The translations under genes were made by a program, and so were the position numbers. A stretch of DNA of 32,000 nucleotides from Flavobacteriaceae bacterium (lineage in GTDB: Bacteria; Bacteroidota; Bacteroidia; Flavobacteriales; Flavobacteriaceae): positions 2,970,001 through 3,002,000 of the forward strand of contig OZ245049.1 of assembly GCA_965224465.1 (NCBI GenBank), given 5' to 3'. Under the pieces are notes generated by a model that made no database searches, was not told the DNA's origin, and saw only the letters and a list, made by a program, of their open reading frames with translations. Each line of letters begins with the position of its first letter. Position 1 is the stretch's first letter. Positions 7,097-31,358 of the stretch are shown piece after piece.

Positions 7097-7105
7097 TGAT
7101 TAAAT

Positions 7106-15571: not shown

Positions 15572-15607
15572 AAAAAAGCCTATTTCAATTTAGAAATAGG
15601 CTTTTCT
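15572..15607 (+). terminator. Intrinsic terminator of tatA
   Basis: aagcctatttc / gaaataggctt form an 11-bp stem with a 6-nt loop, followed by ttc tta t. Confidence 0.7.
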
Positions 15608-15613: not shown

Positions 15614-15659
15614 ATACCAAGTACATTTCCAAGTGATGGTTTAGAAATGCATTTGGTAT
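15614..15659 (+). repeat. MITE-like element, miniature copy (5' arm plus opposing terminal repeat)
   Basis: ataccaagtacatttccaagtgatggtttagaaatgcatttggtat. Termini ataccaagtacat and atgcatttggtat are inverted repeats. Confidence 0.65.
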
Positions 15660-15998: not shown

Positions 15999-16901
15999 TT
16001 AGTTTTTTTCAGGAGGAGTTCCAGCTTCGTTTATTTTATTGGCAGCTACCAAGCTTGTCACCATATCATTTAACATACTACTTGCTGCATTTGGATTGTT
16101 TGGTAACAGGATTAAGTTACTATTAGTACTTGCCCCTATACTTTGTAAAGTATCGTAATGTTGGGTAATTACAATTAGTGCAGAAGCCTCTTGACTGTTT
16201 ATTCCTGATCTATTTAATACATCCACACTTTCTTCCAAACCACGTGCTATTTCTCTACGTTGATCTGCTATACCCATCCCTTGTAAGCGTTTGCTTTCTG
16301 CTTCAGCTTTGGCACGTTCTACAATTAGAATACGTTGGGCGTCTCCTTCAAATTGAGCTGCTACTTTTTCGCGTTCGGCAGCATTAATACGGTTCATAGC
16401 TTCCTTTACTTGTGAGTCTGGATCTATGTCTGTTACCAATGCTTTTACAATATCGTACCCGTAGTTTAACATGGCATCTTTTAATTCACGTTGGATGGCA
16501 TGTGCAATATCATTTTTTTTAATAAAAACGTCATCGAGCCTCATTTTTGGAACTTCAGCACGCACGGTATCAAATATAAAAGCGGTGATTTGCTCACTTG
16601 GATTTTGTAATTTATAAAAAGCATCATATACTTTTTCTCTTAAAATTTGGAATTGCACCGATATTTTAAGGTGTACAAATACATCGTCAGATGTTTTAGT
16701 TTCAACAATTACATCCAATTGTTGAATTTTTAAACTTACACGTCCAGCAACCCTGTCTACGAGTGGTATTTTAAAGTTTAGTCCTGCTTGGGCTGTTTTT
16801 ATGTATTTTCCAAAACGTTCTACAATTGCTGTAGTTTGTTGTTTGACAATAAAGAATCCTGTAAATAAAATAATTATAACAGGAATAAGAAGATAAATCA
16901 T
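15999..16901 (-). CDS. SPFH/band 7 (stomatin-prohibitin-like) membrane protein
   Basis: N-terminal TM helix, then IVERFGKY...GLNFKIPLVDRV... and a coiled C-terminal region (AEREKVAAQFEGDAQRILIVERAKAEAES). Confidence 0.9.
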   Translation of the reverse strand: MIYLLIPVIIILFTGFFIVKQQTTAIVERFGKYIKTAQAGLNFKIPLVDRVAGRVSLKIQQLDVIVETKTSDDVFVHLKISVQFQILREKVYDAFYKLQNPSEQITAFIFDTVRAEVPKMRLDDVFIKKNDIAHAIQRELKDAMLNYGYDIVKALVTDIDPDSQVKEAMNRINAAEREKVAAQFEGDAQRILIVERAKAEAESKRLQGMGIADQRREIARGLEESVDVLNRSGINSQEASALIVITQHYDTLQSIGASTNSNLILLPNNPNAASSMLNDMVTSLVAANKINEAGTPPEKN

Positions 16902-17015
16902 AGTAATGTATTTAGGTTTATTTAAAAATAATTGAATAAATATACGATTTTTGCTTAACGAGCAATCGATACTTTATAATTATATGTATATTTATCCGAA
17001 CTAATTGTTACAAGA

Positions 17016-17363
17016 ATGCGCAAATTTATTTTTACAAGTGTACTGGTCTTTGTTTTAGGACTGGTTGGATATTTTTTAGTGATTTATTATGTTCCTTATA
17101 GTGAAGGTTTTAGATCAGGGGAGTTGGTAAAAATCACCCATAAGGGATTTTTATTTAAAACATGGGAAGGTGAAATTAGCCAAGGCGTTTCCGAAGCTCA
17201 ACGTTTTAAATTTTCTGTAGAAGATAATCAAAAAAAAGTATTAGAAGACCTTAAGGAATACCAAGGAAAAAATATTAAACTATCATATATAGAACGTTTA
17301 GGTACTTTTTTCTGGTTGGGTGATACCAAATATTTTGTTACTAAAGTGGAGAAAACAGACTAG
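17016..17363 (+). CDS. Conserved hypothetical membrane-anchored protein
   Basis: 115 aa with one N-terminal TM helix. I can assign no function. Confidence 0.6.
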   Translation: MRKFIFTSVLVFVLGLVGYFLVIYYVPYSEGFRSGELVKITHKGFLFKTWEGEISQGVSEAQRFKFSVEDNQKKVLEDLKEYQGKNIKLSYIERLGTFFWLGDTKYFVTKVEKTD

Positions 17364-17404
17364 TTTTTTAGTTTTGAGTAATTGATTCTTGCTGTTTGTT
17401 TGTA

Positions 17405-17450
17405 CATAAATAAACTATTTATATCGGTTATTTTGGATTGTAGTTGGTAT
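17405..17450 (+). repeat. MITE-like element, 3' partial copy abutting a full copy
   Basis: ataaataaactatttatatcggttattttggattgtagttggtat equals the 3' end of the following full unit. Confidence 0.7.
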
Positions 17451-17451
17451 C

Positions 17452-17611
17452 ATACCAAATACATTTCCAAGTGACGGTTTAGAAATTGAATTGTTTTTTG
17501 TTTTAGTTAGGCGAAAAATAGAAGGATAGCTTAGTTATCGTTTTGTTTTTTAACAACGCTAGAACGTAAAATAAACTATTTATATCGGTTATTTTGGATT
17601 GTAGTTGGTAT
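17452..17611 (+). repeat. MITE-like element, full copy (160 bp)
   Basis: Bounded by ataccaaataca and tgtagttggtat, which are inverted with one mismatch. The internal sequence is colinear with 20737-20895. Confidence 0.8.
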
Positions 17612-17670
17612 AAACGATTAGGGAGTTTAAAACTATAATTTTTCAACTAGAAAACGGGATCATATAATTT

Positions 17671-17716
17671 AAAAAATCCGAAGAGGCATCATAAATGATT
17701 TCTCTTCGGATTTTTT
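17671..17716 (-). terminator. Hairpin terminator immediately after the MATE stop (probably bidirectional)
   Basis: aaaaaatccgaagag (17671-17685) pairs with ctcttcggatttttt (17702-17716). A/T runs lie on both sides. Confidence 0.7.
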
Positions 17717-17717
17717 A

Positions 17718-18948
17718 TTAAAATTTTTGGAGTAGGTATTTGTACCGTAATTGAAAAAGAATGGAACAAATAGCCAGGCCTACTGGGAAACCAAACCAGA
17801 TGCCTACAGGGCCAAAACCCCAAATAAATGTACATGCATAACTAAATGGGAGTGAGATTATAAAATAAGATATAAAGGTAATTACTGCTGGAATCTTGGC
17901 ATCAGCTAAACCTCTTAAAGTACCAGATAGTATTATTTGAATACCATCTAGCACTTGCATTAGACCACATACTATTAACATTTGACCTGCTAATTTTATG
18001 ACTACAGGATCTGTGGTAAATAGGTGAGGAAGCATGGTACGTCCACCTAAATATAGGATCACAGAAAAGGTACAATAGATATACATTAGATGCATGGACG
18101 TTTTGGTGATTCTAATAATTCCATTTTTATCATTTACTCCTTTATAATGGCTCACACGGATGGTTGTACCTGCTCCCAATCCCTGATAAATCATAAACCC
18201 TAAGGTAGAGAGTGAAATGGCTATTTGGTGAGCTGCCATTCCTGTTTCGTTTACCCATCCCATCATGATAGCACACAATCCAAAAGCAGATGCTTCCATT
18301 ACAATTTGCCCTCCTAATGACATTCCTAATTTTACAACTTGCATGAATTTAAGCCAACAAAATTCACTTTTTTGAACTAGTTTTTTATATAAATTATATT
18401 TTTTGTTATTATAAAATAAGAATATAAAAGCAGCCGCCATAAATATTCTTGCAAGTAACGTTCCAATTCCAGCTCCAGAAAGTCCCATTGCAGGTATGCC
18501 TATTTTACCATACATAAACAGGTAATTACCTATAATATTTATCAGATTTGCCCAAAGCATAATTTTCATAGCTGTTTTTGTATCCCCAATTCCTTCTGCA
18601 AATTGTTTATAGGCATAAAAAACCATCATTGGAAATACGGAAGTGATAAGGATTGCTAAATAGTCTTGTGAAGGTTTTAGTACAGCTATTGGTTGCCTCA
18701 TATAAGGGGTTAGTAAGTACAAACCGATTAATACCAATACTAAGATAAGTCCCATAAAGATATTTGCTAGTAGTCCATTTTTAATCCAAGATCCAATTGC
18801 ATAATTGTCTTTTTCTCCCCAGCTTTTACCTATTAAAGGTGTAAGTGCAAATGAATACCCCATTCCAAAAATTAAAATAAGATTAAAAATGGTATTGCTA
18901 AAAGAGGCTGCTGCAAAATTGGTGGTCCCCAGTTGTCCAATCATTATA
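17718..18948 (-). pseudogene. MATE family efflux transporter, C-terminal 410 codons (gene split by IS insertion)
   Basis: A 12-TM-like hydrophobic protein. Removing the IS and one TSD copy joins it in frame to 20528-20637, giving a 446-aa protein: MTNFWNKNSSEYKKTLSLSIPVIIAQAGQITVGLIDNIMIGQLGTTNFAAASF... Confidence 0.85.
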
Positions 18949-18955
18949 TTATCTA
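18949..18955. repeat. Target site duplication (left) ttatcta
   Basis: An identical 7-mer occurs at 20528-20534, directly outside the two IS terminal repeats. Confidence 0.85.
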
Positions 18956-20527
18956 CTCAAGTTTCGCACCCATCATTTACAGGTGTTTAAGTAAAAATAA
19001 ATAGCATGAAAACCAAGGTAATCCCCTGGTTTTATTGTACTTTTAAGTACGAACAAGAAAGTACAAAACATGCTAGAACACGAAGATATCACAAAAACAC
19101 AGGAGATAAAAGGAAAATTTAATAAGATTTGGCTTAGTTCAGAATACCTACAAGCACATCTAAATATTTTAGGATTCAATAAAATTAAAAACAAGTTTAG
19201 TTGGTGTAAGAAATCGGGGATTTCATTCGGTAATTTAATCTCTACACTTTTAATTTTACCTATTATCGGATTTGATTCTATTCATGGACTTACAAGTAGT
19301 AAAGACAAGGGATTAGGTCAGTCGGGTAAAGATTCATACTATCGAATCCTAGCAAATCAAAAGATAAATTGGAGGGTTTTTCTAGCTCAGTTTGTGAAGC
19401 AATATCTATTAAAAGAAGAGTTCTTTACTCCATCTCAAGACGCTACAAAGTGCTTGATCTTTGACGATACTGATCTTTCTAAAACAGGAAAGACAATTGA
19501 AGGTGTTTCAAAAATATACAACCATGTGTCAAAAACGTATTACCTAGGCTTTAAGCTACTTGTAGCTGGTTATTGGAATGGAAGTGTATTTATCCCTGTT
19601 GACTTTAGTTTGCATCGTGAAAGTAAAACATCAAAATTAAAATACGGTCTAACGGCGAAGCAACGTAGGCTTCAAAAGAAAACTCCAAGATGTAGTAAAA
19701 CAATTGCAGCAAAGAGGTATCAGGAACTCAATAAAAAGAAAACAGACCTGCTAGTTCAAATGTTCTCAAGGCTTGTAAAACGTAAAATCCCCATAGATTA
19801 CATCTTAATAGACACCTGGTTTACAAGTGTTAAATTACTTAGAAAGCTACGGAACATTAGTAGTTCAACTCATATTATTGGGATGTATAAATACAACAGT
19901 AAGATTGAAGTTCGATCAAAGATAAAAACGTTGTCACAACTCAAAAAACAGAAAATAAAACCAAAACGATGCCGTAAATTCAATTATTACTACCATCATT
20001 ACATAACTGAAATTGATGGTCTTAAGGTTGCTGTATTTATTTCAAAACGTGGAAAGAATGGCAAATGGCACACGTTAATATCAACGGATACAACACTGAA
20101 ATTTGTAAAGGCTATTGAAATATACAGTATCAGATGGTCCATAGAAGTGTTTTTTAAAGAAGCTAAGCAGTTGTTTGGTCTTGGAAAATGTCAGTCTACT
20201 AATTTCGATATTCAAATCGCACAAATAAGCATTATAATGGTTCAATATTTACTCACCAGTATTCGATATAGAATGGAAGCCTACGAAACTATAGGAGGCT
20301 TGTTTAAAGATTTAAAACAAGATTATATAGAGAATAAGCTAAACATCAGGATATTAGCAGTTATCAGCTTGGTGATTGACATTTTGGAAAAGATGATTGA
20401 ATCTATTGATGTTGAAATGGTTACACGTAAAATAATAGCGAATATTGAAGATTTTGGATTCCTAGTGAATATCCACAAGCTTAACTATCAAGAGGTTGCG
20501 TAAATCTATCTAAGTGCGAAACTTGAG
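18956..20527 (+). mobile_element. IS4-family-like insertion sequence, full copy (1572 bp)
   Basis: Perfect 14-bp terminal inverted repeats: ctcaagtttcgcac at 18956-18969 and gtgcgaaacttgag at 20514-20527. Flanked by the 7-bp direct repeat ttatcta. Contains a single DDE transposase ORF. Confidence 0.9.
19070..20503 (+). CDS. IS4-family DDE transposase
   Basis: 477 aa. Candidate catalytic residues lie in LIFDDTDL, ILIDTWF and YSIRWSIEVFFKEAK, the last being the Y-2-R-3-E-6-K motif characteristic of IS4-type transposases. Confidence 0.8.
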   Translation: MLEHEDITKTQEIKGKFNKIWLSSEYLQAHLNILGFNKIKNKFSWCKKSGISFGNLISTLLILPIIGFDSIHGLTSSKDKGLGQSGKDSYYRILANQKINWRVFLAQFVKQYLLKEEFFTPSQDATKCLIFDDTDLSKTGKTIEGVSKIYNHVSKTYYLGFKLLVAGYWNGSVFIPVDFSLHRESKTSKLKYGLTAKQRRLQKKTPRCSKTIAAKRYQELNKKKTDLLVQMFSRLVKRKIPIDYILIDTWFTSVKLLRKLRNISSSTHIIGMYKYNSKIEVRSKIKTLSQLKKQKIKPKRCRKFNYYYHHYITEIDGLKVAVFISKRGKNGKWHTLISTDTTLKFVKAIEIYSIRWSIEVFFKEAKQLFGLGKCQSTNFDIQIAQISIIMVQYLLTSIRYRMEAYETIGGLFKDLKQDYIENKLNIRILAVISLVIDILEKMIESIDVEMVTRKIIANIEDFGFLVNIHKLNYQEVA

Positions 20528-20534
20528 TTATCTA
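20528..20534. repeat. Target site duplication (right) ttatcta
   Basis: See 18949-18955. Confidence 0.85.
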
Positions 20535-20637
20535 TTAACCCAACAGTAATTTGGCCTGCCTGGGCTATAATTACAGGGATGCTTAGTGACAGTGTTTTTT
20601 TGTATTCACTGCTGTTTTTATTCCAAAAATTAGTCAT
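20528..20637 (-). pseudogene. MATE family efflux transporter, N-terminal 36 codons
   Basis: ATG at 20637-20635. Reads MTNFWNKNSSEYKKTLSLSIPVIIAQAGQITVGLID-, continuing in frame at 18948. Confidence 0.8.
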
Positions 20638-20651
20638 TTTTTATTTTTTAT

Positions 20652-20683
20652 AATAACTGTATACAAGGCTGTACACAGTTATT
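20652..20683. promoter_or_regulatory. 14-4-14 palindrome 15 nt upstream of the MATE start; candidate operator
   Basis: aataactgtataca aggc tgtacacagttatt, with one mismatch between the arms. Confidence 0.35.
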
Positions 20684-20736
20684 TAGTCGTACTTTAAAAA
20701 GTTGAAAATTGATACATGTGTTTGTACCAATAGTTA

Positions 20737-20895
20737 CACCAATTACATTTCCAAGTGAAGGTTTAGAAATAGAATTATTTTTTGTTTTAGCTAGGCGGAA
20801 AATCTAAGGATAACCTTAGCTATCGTTCTATTTTTCAACAACGCTAGAACATAAAATAAACTATTTATATCGGTCATTTTGGATTGTAATTGGTG
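20737..20895 (+). repeat. MITE-like element, full copy, first of a tandem pair
   Basis: Perfect 11-bp terminal inverted repeats caccaattaca / tgtaattggtg. 159 bp long. Separated from the next copy by tta. Confidence 0.85.
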
Positions 20896-20898
20896 TTA

Positions 20899-21057
20899 CA
20901 CCAATTACATTTCCAAGTGAAGGTTTAAAAATAGAATTATTTTTTGTTTTAGCTAGGCGGAAAATCTAAGGATAGCCTTAGTTATCGTTCTATTTTTCAA
21001 CAACGCTAGAACATAAAACAAACTATTTATATCGGTCATTTTGGATTGTAATTGGTG
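20899..21057 (+). repeat. MITE-like element, full copy, second of a tandem pair
   Basis: Same termini as the first copy, with only a few substitutions relative to 20737-20895 (period 162 bp). Confidence 0.85.
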
Positions 21058-21304
21058 TTATTTATGTAAGGCGCTAATTGCCCTCATAGCATGGCTTAAA
21101 ATTCCATCTTAAATTTATACATTATGAATAAAGAAGCAGGGGAAATATTTTTTTGAAGATATTGTTAAGGTTATAGTATTTAAATTAGTATTGTTTTTTT
21201 AAAAGGTGTTTTTAAAAAATAGAGGGTATATTTCTATAAGAAATGGCATCTTATCTAAGCGTGGGGTATCCATAAAGAAAACAGCAAATAAATTAATAAA
21301 AAAC

Positions 21305-21348
21305 ATAAACCAAGTATAAAACACAGCTGTATTTTATACTTGGTTTAT
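21305..21348. terminator. 44-bp near-perfect palindrome downstream of gltX (candidate bidirectional terminator)
   Basis: ataaaccaagtataaaacacag | ctgtattttatacttggtttat. Arms are 22 nt with one mismatch. Confidence 0.4.
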
Positions 21349-21478
21349 ATTATGTAATTATTTTTAGCGAAAAAAAAGTAAGTAATTATACTTGTCTCTA
21401 ACAGTTCTAAGTTCTATTTTTAAGAATAATGCTAGTTTTTTCAGGCTTAAGGTGACAGTATGTATTAATTACGCACTA

Positions 21479-22996
21479 CTAGCTCAAGTTGTCAATTGCA
21501 AACTGCAACCTAGTTAGGGTTTCTTTTTTTCCTATCATGGCAGCAATATCGAATAAATGTGGTCCTTTTAGAGCACCAACAAGGCTCAGTCGGAAGGGTT
21601 GCATAACTTTTCCAAAACCAATTTCTTTACTGGTAATCCAAGCTTTTACGTCTGTTTCTATGTTTTCAGAAGAGAAATCATCTATTTTATTAATTTCTGA
21701 AATCAATTCTTGCATCAAAGCAGGTGTTCCTTCTTTCCATTGTTTTTTACTTGCTTTGGCATCAAACTGGGATGGATTGGCAAAAAAGAAATCACTTAAC
21801 CCCCAAAAATCGTGTACAAATACGGCACGTTCTTTAATAAGTCCAACAACTTTTTCTATATAGTCAGCATTGGTAGTAATTCCTTTCGCTGTAAGAATTG
21901 GAGTGTATAAAGCTGCTAAATCAGCATTTGATTTTTGCTGCATATACTGTTGGTTAAACCATTCCGTTTTTTCTTTATTAAATTTAGCACCACTTTTACT
22001 CACACGTTCTAAGCTAAAGTCTGCAATTAATTCTTCCAAATTAAAGAGTTCTTGTTCTGTACCAGGATTCCATCCTAAAAATGCCAACATATTGATAAAA
22101 GCATCGTTAAAATATCCGTCTTCTCGGTAACCTTTGCTTACAATTCCAGTAGTTTCGTTTGTGTATTCTAATGGGAATACAGGGAAGCCTAATTTATCAC
22201 CGTCTCGTTTGCTTAATTTTCCTTTACCTACAGGTTTTAAAATTAATGGTAAATGTGCAAATTCTGGAGATTCCCATCCAAATGCTTCGTATAATAAAAT
22301 ATGTAATGGCATAGATGGTAACCATTCTTCTCCACGAATTACGTGGCTTATTTCCATCAAGTGATCATCAACAATGTTTGCTAAATGATAGGTAGGCATC
22401 CCATCACTTTTAAATAATATTTTATCGTCTAAAACATTTGTATCAATTTTAATCTCCCCACGAATCATGTCTTTCATTTGCAAAATTCGATCGGTAGGTG
22501 ATTTAAAACGCACCACAAATTTAGCTCCATTTTCTAAGCGTTTACTTACTTCATCAGCTGATAAAGTTAATGAATTGTCTAGTTTTAAACGGTTGTGATG
22601 GTTGTAGATAAACGTTTTACCTTTTTCTTCATGATCTTTTCTATGAGCATCAAGGGCTTCGGTCGTATCAAATGCATAATAAGCATTTCCAGAATTGATT
22701 AAATCGTGGATGTGTTTTTTGTAAATTTCCTTACGTTCAGATTGACGGTAAGGACCAAATTTTTCGTTGCGGTTTATACCTTCATCAAAAGGAATTCCAC
22801 ACCAATCTAGCGCATCTACAATATACTGCTCGGCATTGGCAACATAGCGTGTTTGATCCGTGTCTTCGATGCGTAATACAAAGGTTCCGTTGTGCTTTTT
22901 AGCAAATAAATAATTGAATAATGCGGTGCGAACCCCACCTATATGTAAAGGTCCTGTTGGGCTTGGTGCAAAACGAACACGAACATTTGATGCCAT
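21479..22996 (-). CDS. gltX: Glutamate--tRNA ligase
   Basis: MASNVRVRFAPSPTGPLHIGGVRTALFNYLFA... (HIGH region) and ...GKLSKRDG (KMSKS-like). The start at 22996 is preferred because a -7 box sits inside the longer track ORF. Confidence 0.93.
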   Translation of the reverse strand: MASNVRVRFAPSPTGPLHIGGVRTALFNYLFAKKHNGTFVLRIEDTDQTRYVANAEQYIVDALDWCGIPFDEGINRNEKFGPYRQSERKEIYKKHIHDLINSGNAYYAFDTTEALDAHRKDHEEKGKTFIYNHHNRLKLDNSLTLSADEVSKRLENGAKFVVRFKSPTDRILQMKDMIRGEIKIDTNVLDDKILFKSDGMPTYHLANIVDDHLMEISHVIRGEEWLPSMPLHILLYEAFGWESPEFAHLPLILKPVGKGKLSKRDGDKLGFPVFPLEYTNETTGIVSKGYREDGYFNDAFINMLAFLGWNPGTEQELFNLEELIADFSLERVSKSGAKFNKEKTEWFNQQYMQQKSNADLAALYTPILTAKGITTNADYIEKVVGLIKERAVFVHDFWGLSDFFFANPSQFDAKASKKQWKEGTPALMQELISEINKIDDFSSENIETDVKAWITSKEIGFGKVMQPFRLSLVGALKGPHLFDIAAMIGKKETLTRLQFAIDNLS

Positions 22997-23015
22997 AATT
23001 GTATATTTTTTTTTG

Positions 23016-23023
23016 CAAATATA
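23016..23023 (-). promoter_or_regulatory. Bacteroidota -7 box (TAnnTTTG) for gltX
   Basis: The reverse complement reads tatatttg, 19 nt upstream of the ATG at 22996. Confidence 0.4.
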
Positions 23024-23276
23024 AATGTTCAAACTCAGAAAAATGCACTAGAATAAAATATTGTCCGAATTAATAGTTAAGAGTTGTTCTAAAAGGATCT
23101 ATTTAAGATAGTTTTATAAAAATAGAAATGGTTGTTTTTATAAAAAAAACAACCATTCTCTCAATCAATCAAACAATTTAACTTATAAATAAGTACGCCT
23201 CTGAAGACCGGAAATCCGCAGCGTAAATACTATTTATAATCGGGTGCAAATGAAACAAATACTAACCGCTTGTAGA

Positions 23277-23297
23277 CGGGGAAATACCCCCTTTTTT
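23277..23297 (+). terminator. Small GC hairpin plus T6 in the gltX-divergent intergenic region
   Basis: cgggg aaata ccccc tttttt. No annotated plus-strand gene lies upstream. Confidence 0.35.
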
Positions 23298-23349
23298 ACC
23301 CCGTAAATCCCCTGTTTTAAAAACTAAACTACAGTGAGTTAGTTGTTTG

Positions 23350-23382
23350 TTGATTAAAGAATATCGTCTAATTTTATTTTTG
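23350..23382 (+). promoter_or_regulatory. Candidate promoter (TTG, 22-nt spacer, TAttTTTG) of the four-gene sensor operon
   Basis: ttg at 23350-23352 and tatttttg at 23375-23382, 55 nt upstream of the ATG at 23437. Confidence 0.35.
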
Positions 23383-23436
23383 TTGCTTGTCTTGTAATAA
23401 TTACTAATTTTAACATATTTTTTTTAAATATTATTA

Positions 23437-23652
23437 ATGGAAATAAACATAGCAAATGGGTTGATAAGTTCTTTTCAAGAAACAGCAATGATTGAGGAAT
23501 TTAGAGAAACACGTTCTAAAAAGCGCCACAATATTATGATGAGATTGACATATAATAGAGAGGGAAAAGATGCTTGTTGTACTGGGTTTGCTATTGGAGA
23601 AATAGAATCGTTGCATGCTAGTGTTCTAGCTTGTACACCAAAACCATATTAA
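23437..23652 (+). CDS. Small hypothetical protein (71 aa, Cys-containing C-terminus)
   Basis: The ORF stops 4 nt before the next ATG, suggesting translationally coupled operon architecture. I recognise no domain. Confidence 0.35.
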   Translation: MEINIANGLISSFQETAMIEEFRETRSKKRHNIMMRLTYNREGKDACCTGFAIGEIESLHASVLACTPKPY

Positions 23653-23656
23653 AAAG

Positions 23657-24283
23657 ATGTTTCATTTTTTGTCTCCCATATTAATTTTTTCGACATTGAT
23701 TGTAGGAATTATTAATATTGAAAAAATTAGAGGGAAAAAGATTTTTCCTTTATTGTATTTTTTAGCTTTTAGTGGTATGGTAGAAATTGTGGGGGCGTTA
23801 ATTTTGAAATTTTCAGGACTAAAACCTTTTTTTGTATAGAACACTTATTTTTTGGTCAGTATTCTTTTTTATAATTATTTATTTAGAAACTATTTGAATT
23901 CAGAGAAGAAAAAAAAAACACTCCATATATTGACTACAGGTTTTGTAGTGTTTGTAATAGGAAATCATTTTTTGAAACAAGATTATTATGAAACGTTTCA
24001 ATCATATAATATTATATACATCGGTTTTTTTGTGATTATTTCCGTTGTTTCATATTATATCGAAAGTCTAAATTCTGATAAAGTTTTGTATGCACAAGAG
24101 AGTTTGTTATTTTGGGTTAGTTTGGGCTTGTTACTTTTTCAGGTAGGAATTATTCCTATTTTTATCTTTTTAAATTTCCTAAATTTTTCAGGCTTATATG
24201 ATTATATATTACTTACTTTAAACTTTGTATTATATGGATGTATGATTACGGGGTTTATAATAAGTAAAAGAGCACATAATTAA
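23657..24283 (+). pseudogene. Multi-pass membrane protein upstream of the histidine kinase, with in-frame TAG
   Basis: Track ORFs 23657-23839 and 23852-24283 are in the same frame and are separated only by TAG at 23837-23839 (...LKPFFV*NTYFLVSILFYNYLF...). Hydrophobic helices occur throughout. Confidence 0.6.
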
Positions 24284-24286
24284 GCG

Positions 24287-25096
24287 ATGCGAAACGAAAA
24301 AGAAGTAGAATTATTAGTATTGGTAACTACAGTTATTGTCTTATTACTAGGTGTTATAGTAGTGGTATTGTTTTCTTTTTTTCAAAAGAAGAAGGCAAGA
24401 TATATAACGAGTCAACTAATTATGAAACAGCAGTTTGAAGAAGAATTAACGAAATCTAAAATTGAAATTAGAGAACAGGCTCTGCAAAATATAAGTTGGG
24501 AAATTCATGATAATGTAGGGCAATTATTATCAGTTGCAAGGATGCAATTGAATATTGTAGAGGCTAGTTTACCAGAAAAGCAACAAGAAAAAATTGCAGA
24601 AACCAATGCGTTGATAGGAAATAGTTTACAAGAGTTACGCAGCTTGGCAAAGACATTAAACCCACAAGTTATAAGAAATTTGGGATTGGTGGAGTCTATA
24701 TATTTAGAAATGGCGCGTTTTAATAAATTAAATTTTATAAAAGCGGGTGTGACAGTTATAAACAAACCTTTGGTTATTCAGATAAACCATGAAATTATAC
24801 TTTTTAGAATAATTCAGGAGTTTTGTAATAACTCGCTAAAATATTCTAAAGGAAGTAATTTGAATGTTGAATTGTTGTATTCAAAAGATTCACTTCAAAT
24901 TACAGCCCAAGATGATGGTATAGGCTTTGACGTCAAAGGCAAAAAGGAACAATTAGGAATAGGATTAATAAATATGAAAAGTCGTTCTGAATTAATTCAC
25001 GCTGATTTAGAATTAACTTCAGAATTAGGAAAAGGAACAATGTTAAATATAAAATACAAGTTACCAAGATTTGTATTGGAAAATTTTAATAGTTAA
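24287..25096 (+). CDS. Sensor histidine kinase (HisKA_3 / NarL-partner type)
   Basis: One N-terminal TM helix, an H-box ISWEIHDNVGQLLS, and an HATPase region DDGIGF...GIGLINMKSR...GKGTML. Confidence 0.88.
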   Translation: MRNEKEVELLVLVTTVIVLLLGVIVVVLFSFFQKKKARYITSQLIMKQQFEEELTKSKIEIREQALQNISWEIHDNVGQLLSVARMQLNIVEASLPEKQQEKIAETNALIGNSLQELRSLAKTLNPQVIRNLGLVESIYLEMARFNKLNFIKAGVTVINKPLVIQINHEIILFRIIQEFCNNSLKYSKGSNLNVELLYSKDSLQITAQDDGIGFDVKGKKEQLGIGLINMKSRSELIHADLELTSELGKGTMLNIKYKLPRFVLENFNS

Positions 25097-25105
25097 AATA
25101 TAAAA

Positions 25106-25750
25106 ATGAAAAAGCAAAACTTAATTATAGTAGACGATCATGTATTGTTCTCCCAGGCATTGAAAGGATTGATAGAAAATTTTGAAGAATATAATATACA
25201 AGCTGTACTTGGAAATGGCAAAGAATTGATGACTTGGTTTAGCGAAAACGAAGAGCATCCAGCCGTGATATTGATGGATATTAACATGCCTATTATGGAC
25301 GGGGTTGAAGCGACAAGATGGTTGAGTGAAAATTACCCAAAAGTAAAAGTGTTAGCACTTTCTATGGACGATCACGAAGCTACCATTATTACCATGCTGC
25401 GCGCTGGGGCAAAAGGCTATTTACTAAAAGACATTCATCCAAAAATTTTAAGACAAGGAATTAACGAGGTTATAGTAAACGGTGTGTTCTATACAGAAAA
25501 GGTAACAAACACTATTTTAAGTACCTACCAACCTAATAATTCTGGTTCTTCGGTGATGCTAAAACCTCGTGAATTGGAGTTTTTAAAATTAGCCTGTACG
25601 GATAAAACGTATAGAGAAATAGCCAGTGATATGTGCCTAAGTCCTAAAACAGTTGATGGGTATAGGGAGGTTCTATTTGCAAAATTGGAAGTTAAAAACC
25701 GAGTGGGATTGGTGTTGTATGGTATAAAAGAAAAATTGGTAGTGTTGTGA
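25106..25750 (+). CDS. Response regulator, NarL/LuxR family
   Basis: Receiver domain (IIVDDH...LMDINMPIMDG...ALSM...KGYLLKD) plus a LuxR-type HTH (LKPRELEFLKLACTDKTYREIASDMCLSPKTVDGYR). Confidence 0.9.
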   Translation: MKKQNLIIVDDHVLFSQALKGLIENFEEYNIQAVLGNGKELMTWFSENEEHPAVILMDINMPIMDGVEATRWLSENYPKVKVLALSMDDHEATIITMLRAGAKGYLLKDIHPKILRQGINEVIVNGVFYTEKVTNTILSTYQPNNSGSSVMLKPRELEFLKLACTDKTYREIASDMCLSPKTVDGYREVLFAKLEVKNRVGLVLYGIKEKLVVL

Positions 25751-25865
25751 TGCTGTTAATTGTTATTGGTTGAGCAATGGGGTTCAAACAAGCCAATCGC
25801 CAATTTATATAACAATAATATAGGGTCTCCTTTCAAATCCTTATCTTTACCAAAAATAGATCACA

Positions 25866-26225
25866 TTGGGGAAAATTACAGTAAGCAATATTAAAGTGTA
25901 CGCCTATCATGGATGTTTGGATGAAGAAGGCAAAATTGGGTCAGATTACCGAGTAGATGTTACTATTAAAGCAAATTTACGTAAGTCTGCAGTTTCGGAT
26001 CACTTAGAAGACACCGTAGATTATGTGCATTTGAATAAAATTGTGAAAGAAGAAATGTCCATCAGATCTAAATTATTAGAAGAAGTGGTAGAACGTATTT
26101 TGATACGTATTATGCAGGAAATTAAATTAGTAGATAAGGCTAGGGTAGCAGTTTCTAAATTAAACCCACCAATAGGAGGCAATGTAGAAATGGTAACCGT
26201 GGAAAGTAGTAAGAAAAGAAAGTAA
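25866..26225 (+). CDS. folB: Dihydroneopterin aldolase
   Basis: ITVSNIKVYAYHGCLDEEGKIGSDYRVDVTI...LEDTVDYVHL...LLEEVVERI is a typical FolB pattern. The start is TTG per the track and remains uncertain. Confidence 0.8.
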   Translation: MGKITVSNIKVYAYHGCLDEEGKIGSDYRVDVTIKANLRKSAVSDHLEDTVDYVHLNKIVKEEMSIRSKLLEEVVERILIRIMQEIKLVDKARVAVSKLNPPIGGNVEMVTVESSKKRK

Positions 26226-26232
26226 AAATACC

Positions 26233-26263
26233 TTGTAGGTTTCTTAAAAACTACCTAGATTTG
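26233..26263 (+). promoter_or_regulatory. Promoter of tRNA-Cys (TTG, 20-nt spacer, TAgaTTTG)
   Basis: ttg at 26233-26235 and tagatttg at 26256-26263, 12 nt upstream of the tRNA 5' end. Confidence 0.5.
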
Positions 26264-26275
26264 CTCACCGATAAT

Positions 26276-26349
26276 GGCGTCGTGGCCGAGTGGCTAGGCA
26301 GCGGTCTGCAAAACCGTCTACAGCGGTTCGAATCCGCTCGTCGCCTCCA
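26276..26349 (+). tRNA. tRNA-Cys (anticodon GCA)
   Basis: Cloverleaf folded by hand. Acceptor stem ggcgtcg/cgtcgcc (one T-T mismatch). Anticodon stem gcggt/accgt with loop ctGCAaa. T arm agcgg-ttcgaat-ccgct. Encoded CCA at 26347-26349. Confidence 0.85.
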
Positions 26350-26350
26350 T

Positions 26351-26380
26351 AAAACCGTATCATTCCGATACGGTTTTTTT
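26351..26380 (+). terminator. Intrinsic terminator after tRNA-Cys
   Basis: aaaccgtatc attcc gatacggttt followed by a T run. Confidence 0.8.
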
Positions 26381-26441
26381 GTTTTCTTTAACATTTATTT
26401 AATATAAAATTTATCACCTTTGTACCTAAAGAGAGGCTAAA

Positions 26442-27302
26442 ATGAAGATATATTCAATCGAAACAGGTAATTTTAAATTGGACGGAGGAGCCATGTTTGG
26501 TGTCGTACCTAAAGTCCTATGGCAGCGTACAAACCCTGCCGATGCTAATAATTTAATAGATATGGCATTGCGCTGTATGTTGATAGAAGATGGAGACAGA
26601 TTGATCCTTATTGATACTGGAGTCGGTAACAAACAATCAGAAAAGTTTTTTAGTTATTATTACATGTTTGGAGACCATAGCTTAGATGTTTCTTTAGCAA
26701 AACATGGGTTTCATAGGAATCAAATTACAGATGTGTTTTTAACACATTTACATTTTGATCATGTAGGAGGCTGTATTCAATGGAATAAAGACCATACGGG
26801 GTATGAACCTGCGTTTAAAAACGCGAAATTCTGGTCAAATAAAAAGCATTGGCATTGGGCTGATGTTCCGAATGTTCGTGAAAAAGCTTCTTTTTTAAAA
26901 GAAAATATAAACCCAATAGAAAAGAGTGGTCAATTAAATTTTGTAGACATCCCATCGGGGAATTATTTAAAAAACTCTCCTTTAGGTTTTGATATCTTAT
27001 TTGCGGACGGACATACCGAAAAACAAATGTTGCCTACCTTAAAATACCAAGATAAAACAATCATATATGCAGCAGATTTATTACCTACAGTTGGTCATAT
27101 TCCGCTACCGTATGTTATGGGATATGATACACGTCCATTATTAACTATGGATGAGAAAGCTGTGTTTTTGAAAAAGGCAGCAGACGAAAATCACTATATA
27201 TTCCTTGAACACGATGCACATAATGAAGTATGTACTGTGCAACATACCGAAAAAGGAGTACGATTAAAAAATACGTATACGTTTAACGAAATATTCAATT
27301 AA
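26442..27302 (+). CDS. MBL-fold metallo-hydrolase
   Basis: THLHFDHVGG motif and downstream His/Asp ligands (ADGHTE, HD). Confidence 0.85.
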   Translation: MKIYSIETGNFKLDGGAMFGVVPKVLWQRTNPADANNLIDMALRCMLIEDGDRLILIDTGVGNKQSEKFFSYYYMFGDHSLDVSLAKHGFHRNQITDVFLTHLHFDHVGGCIQWNKDHTGYEPAFKNAKFWSNKKHWHWADVPNVREKASFLKENINPIEKSGQLNFVDIPSGNYLKNSPLGFDILFADGHTEKQMLPTLKYQDKTIIYAADLLPTVGHIPLPYVMGYDTRPLLTMDEKAVFLKKAADENHYIFLEHDAHNEVCTVQHTEKGVRLKNTYTFNEIFN

Positions 27303-27313
27303 AAAGAGATTCG

Positions 27314-29011
27314 ATGAAAATTAATAAATTAGTTTTAGGCTTAGGACTTGTTTCTATTGCCTTTACAGGATGTAAAACTACCCAGGTAGCTACAACAAAA
27401 TCAAAAACAACGGTTACGATACCTTCTGTTTTAACTGCAACGGATGCCGTAGTTGCTAAAAAAGGGGTGATGACTCCAGAAGAAATAAAAGCATGGCCAC
27501 ATATGGATATCTTTAAAGATTCTGTTCCAGGAATAAGTTTAGAGAAAGCCTATGACTTTGTAAAAAATAAGAAAGGAAAAATTGTGATTGTTGGTATTAT
27601 TGACTCAGGGGTGGATATTGAGCATGAAGATTTAAAAGATGTAGTTTGGACCAATCCTAAAGAAATTGCAGGAAATGGTATAGATGATGACAAAAACGGT
27701 TATATAGATGATATGCATGGGTGGAACTTTTTAGGAGGTAAAAAAGGAACCAAAGCTCCAGAGCAATTAGAAGTAACACGTATGTATAAAGCTGCCAAAG
27801 CTCGTTTTGACGGGAAGACAGCTGTAACTATTGCTGCTGCTGATAAAGCAGACTTCGAAATGTATCAAAAACTAAAAGAGATTTACACCAAAAAATCTGA
27901 AGGAGGGATACGTACTTTAGAGCGTATGAATTTCTTAATGGATGCAATTAATAGTATAAAAAAACATTTAGGAAAAGATGATTTTACCTTGAGTGATGTA
28001 ACTGCTATTAAAACCGATGATCCAGGTTTAGGACAAAAAGTAGCTGCGATTACTGCAATTTATGGCCGTGGTGCTTCTGAAAAAGACATTGCAGATTACC
28101 GTAATAATTTACTTTCAAATAAATCGTATGATTTGGATTTTAACGGAAGAGTTACAGGTGATGACGCCGATGACTGGAGTACGAAATCATATGGAAATAA
28201 CATCGTATTAGGTGGTGGAGCTGATGAATTACACGGGACACACGTATCAGGAATTGTTGCTGCTTCTAGAAACAACGGTATTGGAATGAATGGGGTTGCA
28301 AAAAATGTTCAAATTATGACCGTTAGAGCAGTGCCAGATGGTGATGAATATGATAAAGATGTTGCTTTGGCAATCCGTTACGTTGTAGACAATGGAGCAA
28401 AAGTGGTGAATATGAGTTTTGGTAAAGCATTTTCACCTCACAGTAAATGGGTGTATGATGCTATGAAATATGCAGAAAAACATGATGTTTTATTAGTAAA
28501 AGCAGCAGGAAACAACGGTGAAGATATCGATTTACCTTCGTATGTGCATTTCCCTACAGACTCTCCTATAAATGGATCAGAAGAAATTGTAGATAATATA
28601 TTAACCGTTGGTGCTATGACACGTCATTTTGATGAGAATTTATGTGCTACTTTTTCTAACTATGGAAAAACTAGAGTTGATATTTTTGCGCCTGGATTGG
28701 AAATTTATTCTACCATCCCTAAGGACAATGCGTATTTATCTATCCAAGGAACTTCTATGGCATCCCCAGAAGTGGCTGGTGTAGCCGCGTTGGTTAGATC
28801 ATACTATCCATCATTAACTGCTTCTCAAGTAAAATACATTATTATTAATTCTGGAATAGAATTTAATAGAGAAGTGATTGTTCCTGGATCTAGATCTCAA
28901 CTTAATCCTAAAGGAATACTTAAAAATTTCAATGATTTATCAGTAAATGGAAGAATTTTAAATGCTTACAATGCACTTGTAATGGCTGATAAAATGGTTA
29001 ACGAAAAATAA
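27314..29011 (+). CDS. S8-family (subtilisin-like) serine peptidase, lipoprotein
   Basis: Lipobox AFTGC. Catalytic triad motifs IIDSGVD, HGTHVSGIV and GTSMASPEVAG. Confidence 0.9.
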   Translation: MKINKLVLGLGLVSIAFTGCKTTQVATTKSKTTVTIPSVLTATDAVVAKKGVMTPEEIKAWPHMDIFKDSVPGISLEKAYDFVKNKKGKIVIVGIIDSGVDIEHEDLKDVVWTNPKEIAGNGIDDDKNGYIDDMHGWNFLGGKKGTKAPEQLEVTRMYKAAKARFDGKTAVTIAAADKADFEMYQKLKEIYTKKSEGGIRTLERMNFLMDAINSIKKHLGKDDFTLSDVTAIKTDDPGLGQKVAAITAIYGRGASEKDIADYRNNLLSNKSYDLDFNGRVTGDDADDWSTKSYGNNIVLGGGADELHGTHVSGIVAASRNNGIGMNGVAKNVQIMTVRAVPDGDEYDKDVALAIRYVVDNGAKVVNMSFGKAFSPHSKWVYDAMKYAEKHDVLLVKAAGNNGEDIDLPSYVHFPTDSPINGSEEIVDNILTVGAMTRHFDENLCATFSNYGKTRVDIFAPGLEIYSTIPKDNAYLSIQGTSMASPEVAGVAALVRSYYPSLTASQVKYIIINSGIEFNREVIVPGSRSQLNPKGILKNFNDLSVNGRILNAYNALVMADKMVNEK

Positions 29012-29036
29012 AAGAGTACTATTTTTTTACACATAT

Positions 29037-29075
29037 AAAAGAGCATTTCCCTTATGTAGAGAAATGCTCTTTTTG
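29037..29075 (+). terminator. Intrinsic terminator after the S8 peptidase gene
   Basis: agagcatttc (29040-29049) pairs with gaaatgctct (29061-29070), followed by tttt. Confidence 0.7.
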
Positions 29076-29080
29076 ATTTT

Positions 29081-29155
29081 ATACCAATTACAACCCAAAA
29101 TGACTGATATAAATAATTCCATTTCTAAACCGCCACTTTGAAATGTATTTGATAT
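29081..29155 (-). repeat. MITE-like element, internally deleted copy (75 bp)
   Basis: ataccaattacaacccaaaatgactgatataaata is the reverse of the 3' arm. It is joined directly to attccatttctaaaccgccactttgaaatgtatttgatat, the reverse of the 5' arm. Confidence 0.7.
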
Positions 29156-29286
29156 TAATGATTGCTGTAAAGCTAATTGATGTCAAATGGTATTATTTTT
29201 GATGAAACAGAAACGATATAAAAAACAATTGTATTTCCAAAACAGTTGTTTAGAAACACAATTGATGACTACTAAATAACAACCGA

Positions 29287-31155
29287 ATGAATTTAAGAAA
29301 ACAACACCTATTTTTAGTTCTTTTAATCGCTTTTTCAGGCTTAAAAGCACAACAAAACATAGGAAAACAACGAACAAACCCAGGGTATTGGCAACAACGA
29401 GTAAACTACACGATGGAGGTAGATATGGATGTGAAAAACTTCCAGTATAAAGGAACTCAAAAACTAGTCTATACCAATAACTCTCCTGACAATTTGCACC
29501 AAGTGTTTTATCATTTGTATTTCAATGCTTTTCAGCCAGGCAGTGAAATGGACATGCGTTTGCAAACCATCAAAGATCCTGATGGAAGGATGGTAAACAA
29601 CATAGGAACTGTAGAAAGTCCCATATATCAAAGTAGAATTTCCATTCTAAAGCCAAACGAGATTGGATATCTAAAAGTAGTAAGTTTGTTGCAAGATGGA
29701 AAAAAAGTAGCTTTTAAAGTGGAAGGAACCATCTTACAAGTGACTTTAAATACCCCTATTTTATCGGGTACATCTGTGATTTTTGAAATGGAATTTGAAG
29801 GACAGGTTCCAGTTCAAATTAGGAGATCGGGGCGTAATAATAAAGGAGGAGTTGCATTGACCATGACACAGTGGTATCCAAAAATAGCTGAATATGATTA
29901 TCAAGGATGGCAAGCACATCCTTATATTGCTAGGGAGTTTCAAGGTGTTTGGGGTGATTTTGATCTTAGGTTACACATCGATAAAAAATATACCGTTGCG
30001 GCATCTGGTTATATTCAAAATCCGCAAGAAGTAGGCCATGGTTATGAAGACCCATCTAAGAAATTAAAAAAATCAAAATCTAAAAAAATAACATGGCATT
30101 TTAAAGCGCCCAATGTACACGATTTTAGTTGGGCTGCAGATCCTGATTATATCCATGATAAACTAGCGGTAGATAAGGAAAGAACGTTGCACTTTTTCTA
30201 TAAAAAATCACTTGCTAAAAAATACAGAAAAAACTGGAAACAATTTCAACCTAAGGCTGTGGAAATCATGCAGTATTTTAACAAATACATAGGAGAATAC
30301 CCTTACAAACAATATTCTATTATCCAAGGAGGTGACGGAGGTATGGAGTACGCTATGTTAACCATGATAACTGGAAAAAGAAGTCAAGGAAGCTTGGCAG
30401 GGATCACGGCACATGAAATGGCACATATGTGGTTCCAGCATATATTGGCAACTAACGAGAGTACACATCCGTGGATGGATGAAGGATTTACGAGTTATAT
30501 TTCTGATAAATGTATGGATGCTATTTTTGATAGAAATAGTAAAGAAATTTTTAAAGGTTCTTATGATTCATATAACTATTTAGTGAATTCGGGGAAGCAA
30601 GAACCATTAACTACTCATGGAGATCGTTTTAATTTGAATATGGCTTATGGCATCGCAAGTTATAGTATGGGTACTATATTTTTAAACCAACTGGAATATA
30701 TTATTGGGAAAGAAAATTTAGCCAGCACACTTAAAAAGTACTTTGATGATTTCAAGTTTACGCATCCTACACCCAACGATTTTAAACGTGTTGCAGAACG
30801 TGTTTCAGGGATCCAACTTGAATGGTATTTGAATGAGTGGATACAAACTACGCATACGATAGATTATGGAGTAACCAAAGTGATGGAGAATCAAATCACA
30901 TTAACAAGACTTGGGGCAATGCCGATGCCTATTGATTTAACAGTCCAATATACCGATGGGACCTCAGAGAATTATTACATCCCATTACGTATGATGCGTG
31001 GTCAAAAACCAAGCGTTGCAATCTTATTAAAAAGTTGGGCTTGGGCAGTACCTAATTATACGTTTAAAGCAAGTAAAACAATTAAATCTGTAACGATAGA
31101 CCCTTCCAATCGCATGGCAGATGTAAATAAAGCAAACAATGTATTTACTTTTTAG
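29287..31155 (+). CDS. M1-family zinc metallopeptidase (secreted)
   Basis: Signal peptide. HEMAHMWF followed by WMDEGFTSY (HEXXH-18-E). Confidence 0.9.
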   Translation: MNLRKQHLFLVLLIAFSGLKAQQNIGKQRTNPGYWQQRVNYTMEVDMDVKNFQYKGTQKLVYTNNSPDNLHQVFYHLYFNAFQPGSEMDMRLQTIKDPDGRMVNNIGTVESPIYQSRISILKPNEIGYLKVVSLLQDGKKVAFKVEGTILQVTLNTPILSGTSVIFEMEFEGQVPVQIRRSGRNNKGGVALTMTQWYPKIAEYDYQGWQAHPYIAREFQGVWGDFDLRLHIDKKYTVAASGYIQNPQEVGHGYEDPSKKLKKSKSKKITWHFKAPNVHDFSWAADPDYIHDKLAVDKERTLHFFYKKSLAKKYRKNWKQFQPKAVEIMQYFNKYIGEYPYKQYSIIQGGDGGMEYAMLTMITGKRSQGSLAGITAHEMAHMWFQHILATNESTHPWMDEGFTSYISDKCMDAIFDRNSKEIFKGSYDSYNYLVNSGKQEPLTTHGDRFNLNMAYGIASYSMGTIFLNQLEYIIGKENLASTLKKYFDDFKFTHPTPNDFKRVAERVSGIQLEWYLNEWIQTTHTIDYGVTKVMENQITLTRLGAMPMPIDLTVQYTDGTSENYYIPLRMMRGQKPSVAILLKSWAWAVPNYTFKASKTIKSVTIDPSNRMADVNKANNVFTF

Positions 31156-31167
31156 TGACAGGACTTG

Positions 31168-31321: not shown

Positions 31322-31358
31322 ATAGGACATAAGGGAGCCAGAAATAAAGATTAAATAG

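Follow-up and report, generated by a model that had tools for sequence, protein, structure and literature searches.

A probable new miniature inverted-repeat transposable element family in a Flavobacteriaceae genome

Introduction

What is the non-coding unit of about 160 bp that recurs, in several lengths, between the genes of a 32,000-nt stretch of a Flavobacteriaceae genome (GenBank assembly GCA_965224465.1, contig OZ245049.1, positions 2,970,001 to 3,002,000)? This stretch, referred to here as the window, is Flavobacteriaceae DNA with 32 % G+C, and its housekeeping genes include those for PNGase F, RNase R and GltX. A preliminary description of the sequence had counted at least nine copies of the unit, and had read it as a non-autonomous transposable element or as a structured element of the repetitive extragenic palindrome (REP) or bacterial interspersed mosaic element (BIME) kind. 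The first of these readings is the one supported here, by identical 3-bp TTA or TAA flanks, an empty site in relatives, copies at non-orthologous loci, deletion derivatives and tandem dimers. We consider it probable (about 0.75) that the unit is a new family of non-autonomous MITEs (miniature inverted-repeat transposable elements), otherwise an ordinary selfish repeat belonging to a well-known kind of element.

Copies in the window

The window was searched with an nhmmer profile built from the four full copies. The copies, designated A to I and M2, are as follows.

Copy A: 316-413, + strand; the left ~95 nt, running from the left terminus TACCAAAATTC as far as and including the core hairpin, with the right part missing (nhmmer E=1.9e-17, profile positions 4-97).
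Copy B: 8477-8531, + strand; the right ~55 nt, with its terminus ending 3-4 nt early (nhmmer E=5.2e-13, profile positions 102-156).
Copy C: 15615-15658, no strand assigned; a 44-nt mini hairpin, TACCAAGTACATTTC-CAAGTGATGGTTTA-GAAATGCATTTGGTA (nhmmer E=4.3e-8; covariance-model matches on both strands).
Copy D: 17406-17449, + strand; the right ~45 nt, with TTGGTA at the end (nhmmer E=1.2e-8).
Copy E: 17452-17611, + strand; full (nhmmer E=8.8e-50; covariance model 164 bits).
Copy F: 20737-20895, + strand; full, with perfect 11-bp inverted repeats CACCAATTACA/TGTAATTGGTG (nhmmer, covariance model).
Copy G: 20899-21057, + strand; full, in tandem with F and 97 % identical to it (nhmmer, covariance model).
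Copy H: 29082-29154, - strand; 73 nt, internally deleted, with both termini present (nhmmer for both ends, E=3e-7; covariance model 60.6 bits).
Copy M2: 29226-29264, no strand assigned; a diverged mini hairpin, CAATTGTATTTCC-AAAACAGTTG-TTTAGAAACACAATTG, with 16 pairs (pattern match at 29233-29256).
Copy I: 31168-31321, - strand; full, with a 6-nt deletion in the core (nhmmer E=3e-45).

These ten copies, namely four full (154-160 bp), three truncated, one deleted to 73 bp and two minis of ~40 bp, together make up ~3 % of the window. All nine copies of the preliminary description are among them, each where it had been placed or within 1-3 nt of that position, and the diverged mini M2 raises the count to ten. 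The four full copies were recovered with nhmmer E values of 1e-45 to 1e-51, and two conserved motifs of 17 and 25 nt occur 7 and 6 times, compared with 0.39 and 0.00 times in dinucleotide shuffles. M2 is not significant by nhmmer alone (E=1.4); it is included in the 6 matches in the window, where 0 are expected, to the pattern ATTTCNAA-N6-9-TTTAGAAA. An unfiltered covariance-model search of the window returned no extra copies, only generic hairpins and terminators.

Mini C is composed of the left terminus followed by its own inverted complement, and in copy H the left and right arms are joined at a TATTT microhomology. Copy I is the most diverged (78-85 % identity to the other copies). The inverted repeats of copy E, TACCAAATACA...TGTAGTTGGTA, cover 17453-17610, and a 3-nt spacer, TCA (17450-17452), lies between copies D and E. 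The junction TGTAATTGGTG-TTA-CACCAATTACA reported for adjacent copies was seen in the sequence.

A leftward extension of copy D into the 3′ end of the gene at 17016-17363 was rejected, as 31 of 500 shuffles score as well. We note that the last ~13 codons of this gene (17323-17363) start with ATACCAAATA, a 10-nt match to the left terminus of the element, and that its C-terminus lies at about the right distance from fragment D; this hint of a decayed copy is not significant.

Copies in other genomes

A two-anchor pattern was applied to a collection of 185,579 species genomes, which does not include the source genome. Only two full copies were found, in the metagenome-assembled genomes (MAGs) NORP129 (L001) and NORP167 (L002). 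Both are at loci that are non-orthologous to every window copy, and they share 84-92 % identity with copies E, F and G and 78-82 % with copy I, the same level as is found among the window copies. The L002 copy is located between ahpC and ahpF (L002 1471-1792) and ends ~15 nt before the ahpF start codon. In its orientation, the operon transcript would bear the more poorly folding of the two element strands.

In the metagenome collection, the right-arm pattern matched one half copy (L007, a right half) and the left-arm pattern gave 0 matches. The left arm also gave 0 matches in viral contigs, and 19 viral-contig matches to a 17-mer were dismissed as chance, none being matched by the element profile. 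Searches of the plasmid collection by blastn, with E cut-offs of 1e-5 and 10, returned only chance matches of 25-45 nt, and no phage record matched the element.

Element translations were also used as a protein query (a chimeric 56-aa alignment), and seven small spurious open reading frames (ORFs) that carry element-derived peptides were identified in this way. Six of the seven are on the source contig, outside the window, and two of the source-contig ORFs span tandem junctions (..WIVIG-I-IP..), consistent with GGTA-TTA-TACC. One of the spurious ORFs reflects a copy with a core deletion, and through the seventh a TTA-flanked copy of the left part was located in another assembly (L032). The copy number in the source genome is at least about 18, and probably much higher. 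The element causes spurious small-ORF calls (six in a public protein collection), and masking it would improve annotation and assembly in the clade concerned, which consists of little-studied marine Flavobacteriaceae.

The copies match no Rfam family. At the gathering thresholds, only a tRNA was found in the whole window, and at E values up to 10 the region 20700-21100 matched only generic hairpin models (e.g. plant microRNA precursors), far below threshold. No description of the element or its sequence was found among the searchable texts of the literature, and the family is apparently undescribed.

Structure of the element

The termini of copies F and G, CACCAATTACA/TGTAATTGGTG, are perfect 11-bp inverted repeats. 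The terminal inverted repeats in E, I, L001 and L002 are 11-12 bp long with 0-3 mismatches, and all are of the length expected of a MITE (at least 10 bp). Both forms of the termini reported previously, CACCAATTACA/TGTAATTGGTG and TACCAAAT.CA/TG.A.TTGGTA, are present in the sequence, the TACC...GGTA variant being found in E, I and L001. The outermost pair covaries (C-G vs T-A), and the consensus is (C/T)ACCAATTACA...TGTAATTGG(T/C)(G/A). The termini stayed conserved when the copies from other genomes were added.

Inverted symmetry had been described for sub-terminal arms of ~35 nt. However, the whole element forms one rod, with 61 pairs in the consensus structure and a fold energy of -52 kcal/mol (z-score -7.2) on one strand and -46 kcal/mol (z-score -7.2) on the other. 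The reported core hairpin, CTAAGG-ATAR-CCTTAG, is intact in the copies starting at 20737 and 20899 but degenerate or deleted in those starting at 17452 and 31168. The alignment of the six full copies, from three genomes, contains 110 invariant columns, and the interior is as conserved as the termini; compensatory change is seen in only 4 of the 61 pairs (6 sequences). On reading the alignment, we found that the right arm does not form a separate hairpin, and that no Bacteroidetes-type promoter (TTTG / TAnnTTTG) is conserved in or beside the element.

As had been proposed, no protein is encoded. Each of the six frames is interrupted by stops, and the longest stretch without one (~34 codons) has no conserved start. 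In size and lack of coding capacity, the element conforms to the usual definition of MITEs (about 50-800 bp, non-coding).

Flanking sequences

The trinucleotides that flank the eight complete copies are listed below.

Copy F: TTA left (20734-20736), TTA right (20896-20898).
Copy G: TTA left (20896-20898), TTA right (21058-21060).
L001: TTA left, TTA right.
L002: TTA left, TTA right.
Copy H: TAA left, TAA right in its own orientation; TTA on the + strand, at 29079-29081 and 29155-29157.
Copy E: TCA left, TAA right.
Copy C: TAA left, TTT right.
Copy I: ATA left, CAA right.

Identical 3-nt flanks, as expected for the target-site duplication of a MITE, are present in five of the eight. TTA also adjoins the partial copies A (313-315, left), L007 and L032, and a partial copy in L003 (see below). 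In the F/G tandem pair, a single TTA is common to both copies, giving the arrangement TTA[F]TTA[G]TTA. The flank of copy H is the complementary trinucleotide, and the flank is therefore independent of the orientation of the element, as a target duplication predicts. Taken together, the flanks fit a 3-bp duplication of a T-W-A target, and a true duplication is probable. The flank data alone fit duplication of a T-W-A-specific target or a TTA carried by the element alike.

No target consensus beyond T-W-A was visible in the flanks that were read, and guided insertion of the IS110 type was rejected on these grounds. A TA duplication of the IS630/mariner type was also rejected, as one end would then have an extra base without a partner, and as the outermost C-G/T-A pair covaries within the inverted repeat.

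The right-hand TTA of L001 (5540-5542) is the TAA stop of a 632-aa minus-strand amidotransferase-like gene. A T-W-A flank is, in such cases, a stop codon, and an insertion at TAA would restore the stop; this may be one reason for the presence of copies at the ends of genes.

Corresponding sites in relatives

Judged by the M1 peptidase, the closest relatives of the source genome are uncultured Flavobacteriaceae (73-81 % identity), followed by Tenacibaculum and Polaribacter (~65 %). Four related MAGs or metagenome strains, with about 73-81 % protein identity, were used for comparison. Their ~90 kb of syntenic DNA (L003-L006 and L008-L012, from NORP129, NORP167, a third MAG and metagenome contigs) matches about 16000-32000 of the window. 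A profile scan of this DNA found none of the window copies at the syntenic loci, and the sole match, in L003, was a degenerate piece of the left end in another intergenic spacer. A pattern match at L003 6163-6185 falls within a response-regulator coding sequence and was discarded as chance.

The F/G site is empty in L006 and L008, which read ...GATTGATACGCTAA..CAATAG-GTA-TTTATGTAAGG... and are homologous to the window on both sides. In the window, the site reads ...AATTGATACATGTGTTTGTACCAATAG-TTA[F]TTA[G]TTA-TTTATGTAAGG..., with CAATAG before the first TTA. Copies H, M2 and I are extra blocks amid conserved terminator and promoter-like blocks and are missing in L003, L006, L008 and L011, and copies D and E are missing 3′ of MatE in L008. 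Dispersed copies that are present in one genome and absent from another are characteristic of MITEs. The distribution indicates that the element inserted independently in several lineages, because the L001 and L002 loci are unrelated to those of the window copies and the copies are absent from the syntenic relatives, and that it has expanded in the lineage of the window. This lineage-specific burst (10 copies in 32 kb vs none of them in the syntenic DNA of relatives) occurred in a genome that also carries insertion sequences (ISs) shared with Tenacibaculum fish pathogens.

Terminator hairpins 3′ of the genes for the S8 peptidase (29038-29072), the M1 peptidase (31380-31420) and gltX (21305-21348) are kept in position in the relatives. 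The stems of the two peptidase terminators are near-identical in sequence across relatives. For gltX, the hairpin is kept and its sequence replaced, L006 having AAAAAGGAGT...ACTCCTTTTTT where the window has ACCAAGTATAAAA...TTTTATACTTGGT. NORP129 contains a different repeat of ~120 bp (TCACCAGTCACCAATCAACAATGACTAATGACTAG...), in about four tandem copies (L003 6280-6660, and also in L004), in the spacer between the response-regulator gene and folB; the corresponding spacer in the window is only ~115 nt.

Location relative to genes

Most copies are found in one of three places: the spacer of two convergent genes, the interval from a stop codon to a terminator, or the sequence just past a terminator. 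The start of copy B overlaps the TAA stop (8478-8480) of a DUF2752 gene (8088-8480), copy C is 9 nt past a terminator-like hairpin (15574-15605), and copy E is between the gene at 17016-17363 (+ strand) and the terminator of the MatE gene (- strand). Copy H is ~10 nt past the conserved terminator of the S8 peptidase gene, and copy I, between the M1 peptidase stop (31153-31155) and a conserved terminator (~31380-31420), is in a 3′ untranslated region. The preliminary placement of all copies at gene 3′ ends or between convergent genes holds for most of them, but not for all: M2 is in a 5′ untranslated region, where a conserved promoter-like box precedes it and the ATG of the M1 peptidase gene follows it, the F/G pair is downstream of gltX but also upstream of the MatE gene, and the fragment at 8477 abuts or overlaps a stop codon. 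Orientation with respect to neighbouring genes is mixed, with B, D and E lying along the upstream gene and I, H, F/G and L002 opposite.

Asymmetry of the two strands

In every one of the seven long copies, folding is much more favourable for the strand that contains CATTTCCAAGTG...AAACTATTTATATCGG than for its complement. Fold energies for four of them are given below.

Copy E: element strand -48.3 kcal/mol, complement -20.0 kcal/mol.
L002: element strand -45.2 kcal/mol, complement -27.0 kcal/mol.
Copy H: element strand -19.2 kcal/mol, complement -4.1 kcal/mol.
Copy F: element strand -49.9 kcal/mol, complement -43.5 kcal/mol.

Mismatches were counted over stem pairs defined by a strand-neutral palindrome alignment of the consensus. 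G·T occurs in at least one copy in 22 pair columns, compared with 6 columns for A·C (binomial estimate, p ~0.004), and the events private to one copy number about 13 for G·T and 4-5 for A·C. Replication-strand mutation bias does not explain this excess, because copies H and I, on the opposite genomic strand, share the same G·T bias. Nor is selection on read-through transcripts a simple explanation, because the orientation of the copies is mixed. The excess may have been inherited from a master copy, or a single-stranded form (RNA or DNA) may be under selection, a choice that seven related sequences cannot decide.

The element might also be something other than a passive DDE-type MITE, namely a mobile hairpin with one particular single strand as its active or selected form, either through transposition of single-stranded DNA at T-W-A by a Bacteroidota system of the REPIN/RAYT (REP-associated tyrosine transposase) type, or as a mobile, MITE-borne structured RNA of ~160 nt whose fold is under selection. 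We regard this as unlikely, and it retains some weight because the stem excess of G·T over A·C is consistent: it is seen in three genomes, and whichever genomic strand a copy is on. Should hundreds of copies bear it out, the strand-asymmetric hairpin would provide a tractable test of selection on RNA or single-stranded DNA in bacterial MITEs.

Comparison with known repeats

The Correia elements of Neisseria (also NEMIS or CREE) and the ERIC or IRU sequences of enterobacteria are non-coding intergenic repeats of 100-160 bp with inverted termini and a long imperfect hairpin. They occur in full and internally deleted size classes, are found at gene ends with TA flanks, and are co-transcribed with their neighbours in either orientation. 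The present element resembles them in size, inverted termini, whole-element hairpin, deletion classes, location at gene ends and co-transcription with neighbours in either orientation. However, it is flanked by T-W-A rather than TA, has no sequence relationship to them and belongs to a different host phylum, Bacteroidota, and no promoter or IHF site was identified in it.

MITEs have been catalogued in large numbers in Bacteroidota (PMC11602168). BrickBuilt, MITEPgRS, MITE239 and MITE700 of Porphyromonas gingivalis (with IS5-family termini; PMC4596501) and MITECca01 of Cardinium (derived from IS982; PMC9769881) are from the same phylum and are likewise short and non-coding, with inverted termini and presence/absence differences. 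The P. gingivalis termini, GAGACC... and ACGTCAGTTCGA, are unrelated to the (C/T)ACCAATTACA found here. For the P. gingivalis and Cardinium MITEs, in contrast to the present element, the parent IS has been identified, the duplications vary, and the rod-like form does not extend through the entire element.

PIF/Harbinger elements, the superfamily of the Tourist-type MITEs, are described as having short inverted termini and as duplicating a 3-bp target site, TTA/TAA (PMC2213677). Both features are common to Tourist-type MITEs and the present element. Subgroups of the IS5 family also make 3-bp duplications and have short inverted termini. However, IS5-family ends typically begin with GA or GG, whereas the ends of this element begin with CACC or TACC, and no IS5-type transposase is linked to the element in the present data.

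With REP/BIME sequences and RAYT-mobilised REPINs, the element shares palindromes located between genes at gene ends, inverted doublets that form a larger hairpin, and structure on one strand. The only REP-sized units are the two minis of ~40-44 nt. The full element differs in being 159 bp long, in having true terminal inverted repeats and duplicated flanks, and in lacking a conserved GTAG-like head. The combination by which REPs and REPINs are recognised (palindromes of 20-40 nt, a head motif, no flank duplication and a RAYT gene) is not found: a Pfam scan of 29 window ORFs detected no Y1 transposase domain, and the window showed no RAYT gene. Size, terminal inverted repeats and flank duplication thus make the REP/BIME alternative of the preliminary description less likely, and it may still apply to the ~40-bp minis. 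Palindromic elements derived from IS200/IS605 (PATEs) are without terminal inverted repeats, have sub-terminal hairpins at the two ends on one and the same strand, and insert in a single orientation 3′ of a fixed tetra- or pentanucleotide. These features are also not those of the present element, which has terminal inverted repeats, a right arm free of hairpins, and a copy (H) flanked by TAA...TAA and not TTA...TTA in element orientation.

Integron attC sites have the core sites R″ (RYYYAAC) and R′ (GTTRRRY) on either side of an imperfect palindrome, located 3′ in a gene cassette. An attC origin was rejected, as the right end with its flank reads GTTACAC or GTTATTT, unlike GTTRRRY, and as there is no ORF between the tandem copies.

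Mode of movement and alternative explanations

If the element is a MITE, a transposase, the class of which is conjectural, would recognise the 11-bp repeats (C/T)ACCAATTACA, and recognition would probably extend to the conserved sub-terminal arms. Insertion would take place at T-W-A, which would be duplicated as the 3-bp target-site duplication. Copies would build up at the ends of genes, where TAA and TTA are common at and after stops, and where insertions among stops, terminators and convergent genes would be tolerated. The tandem arrangement TTA[copy]TTA[copy]TTA could arise when a copy inserts again at the TTA that adjoins one already present, or when a dimer moves, and decay would then lead to the half copies, the internally deleted copy (via the TATTT microhomology) and the mini hairpins. 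We infer no function for the host beyond the placing of a stable hairpin in read-through transcripts. If the T-W-A duplication is true, it would indicate that Bacteroidota have an IS5/PIF-like transposase or another that makes 3-bp duplications.

Several observations weigh against this interpretation. No autonomous element with matching termini was found in the window, and the pattern scans of genomes, metagenomes, viral contigs and plasmids yielded MITE copies or nothing. Three of the eight complete copies (E, C and I) are without identical flanks, and in the orientation of the element TTA outnumbers TAA (roughly 8 vs 1-3 insertion events), an excess not expected of a symmetric T-W-A target. 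The empty sites have GTA rather than TTA, which requires one extra substitution, and they come from a comparison across species (73-81 % protein identity), not strains. At the site of copy H, L003 holds a 14-nt match to the left end of the element, so that an ancient copy may have been present there and later lost. Finally, a double-stranded DDE mechanism gives no reason to expect the marked difference between the two strands of the hairpin.

Movement as single-stranded DNA by an HUH/Y1 enzyme, with the element as a REPIN-like or IS200/IS605-derived palindrome and TTA as a fixed target or cleavage motif, would fit the asymmetry of all seven long copies whichever genomic strand they are on (22 G·T vs 6 A·C columns), the excess of TTA over TAA in element orientation, and the likeness of the ~40-44-nt minis to REP units; TTA[copy]TTA can also be read as a target TTA plus an element ending in TTA. 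We nevertheless hold this to be distinctly unlikely, as the terminal inverted repeats are perfect and the arms mutually inverted, whereas the sub-terminal hairpins of IS200/IS605 elements are direct. The hairpin-free right arm, the TAA...TAA flanks of copy H in its own orientation, the lack of a target consensus beyond T-W-A and the absence of a Y1 domain from the 29 window ORFs scanned with Pfam also argue against it. The very stable fold and wobble-rich, strand-specific pairing could instead mark a structured RNA or regulatory module (an mRNA 3′-end stabiliser, a bidirectional terminator or a small RNA gene) that selection would maintain and recombination or duplication would spread, or a domesticated MITE with selection acting on its RNA fold. 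Some copies are certainly transcribed (I, before its terminator, and L002, within ahpC-ahpF), and the interior is conserved like the termini, with 110 invariant columns across three genomes. This too is very unlikely: orientation is mixed, with the result that host transcripts often bear the poorly folding strand, only 4 of 61 pairs show compensatory change in the 6 sequences, no conserved Bacteroidetes-type promoter was seen in or beside the element, no Rfam family matches it even at E=10, and the orthologous genes of relatives manage without it.

The half copies and fragments (A, B, D, L007 and L032), in a window where ISs are abundant, might suggest that the copies are the left-over ends of a larger IS or transposon that was deleted repeatedly at each site. 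However, six full copies from three genomes have the same ~159-bp interior and the same boundaries, which independent deletions would not yield, the ends differ from those of both ISs in the window, and the tandem dimers have a single common flank trinucleotide. We consider this explanation scarcely credible, and a MITE family remains the interpretation that we favour.

Insertion sequences and other features of the window

The preliminary description referred to four IS types in the window. Only two were found, and the tandem array at 1309-5441 may have been part of that count.

IS256-family element: about 5443-6845; ends TTAAACTCTGTCTG....
IS4-family element: 18955-20530; inverted ends ACTCAAGTTTCGCAC, 477-aa transposase.
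Truncated inverted copy of the IS4-family element: 6861-7097; 237 nt, 90 % complementary, abutting the IS256-family element.

The termini of the MITE candidate had been reported to match no IS in the window, and they are indeed unrelated to the ends of both the IS4-family and the IS256-family element. The IS4-family element is inserted just upstream of the MatE start codon, with an apparent 5-bp TATCT duplication. At 90 % identity, its transposase clusters with IS4 transposases from two fish pathogens, Tenacibaculum dicentrarchi and Tenacibaculum finnmarkense, plasmid copies included. A composite transposon, with pairs of elements around MatE and the IS, was considered and rejected, as MatE and gltX are adjacent and in the same order in relatives that are free of the element.

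The array at 1309-5441 consists of three tandem units of ~1348 bp, with a 300-nt stretch that is 100 % identical between 1416-1715 and 2764-3063. The units contain small ORFs of 89-168 aa that have no Pfam match above the curated cut-offs, and the array resembles a series of gene cassettes that was duplicated recently, not an IS. A tRNA gene (26276-26346; Rfam tRNA, 59 bits) is located between folB and a gene for a metallo-beta-lactamase-fold protein, and its anticodon loop, read by eye, has GCA (Cys).

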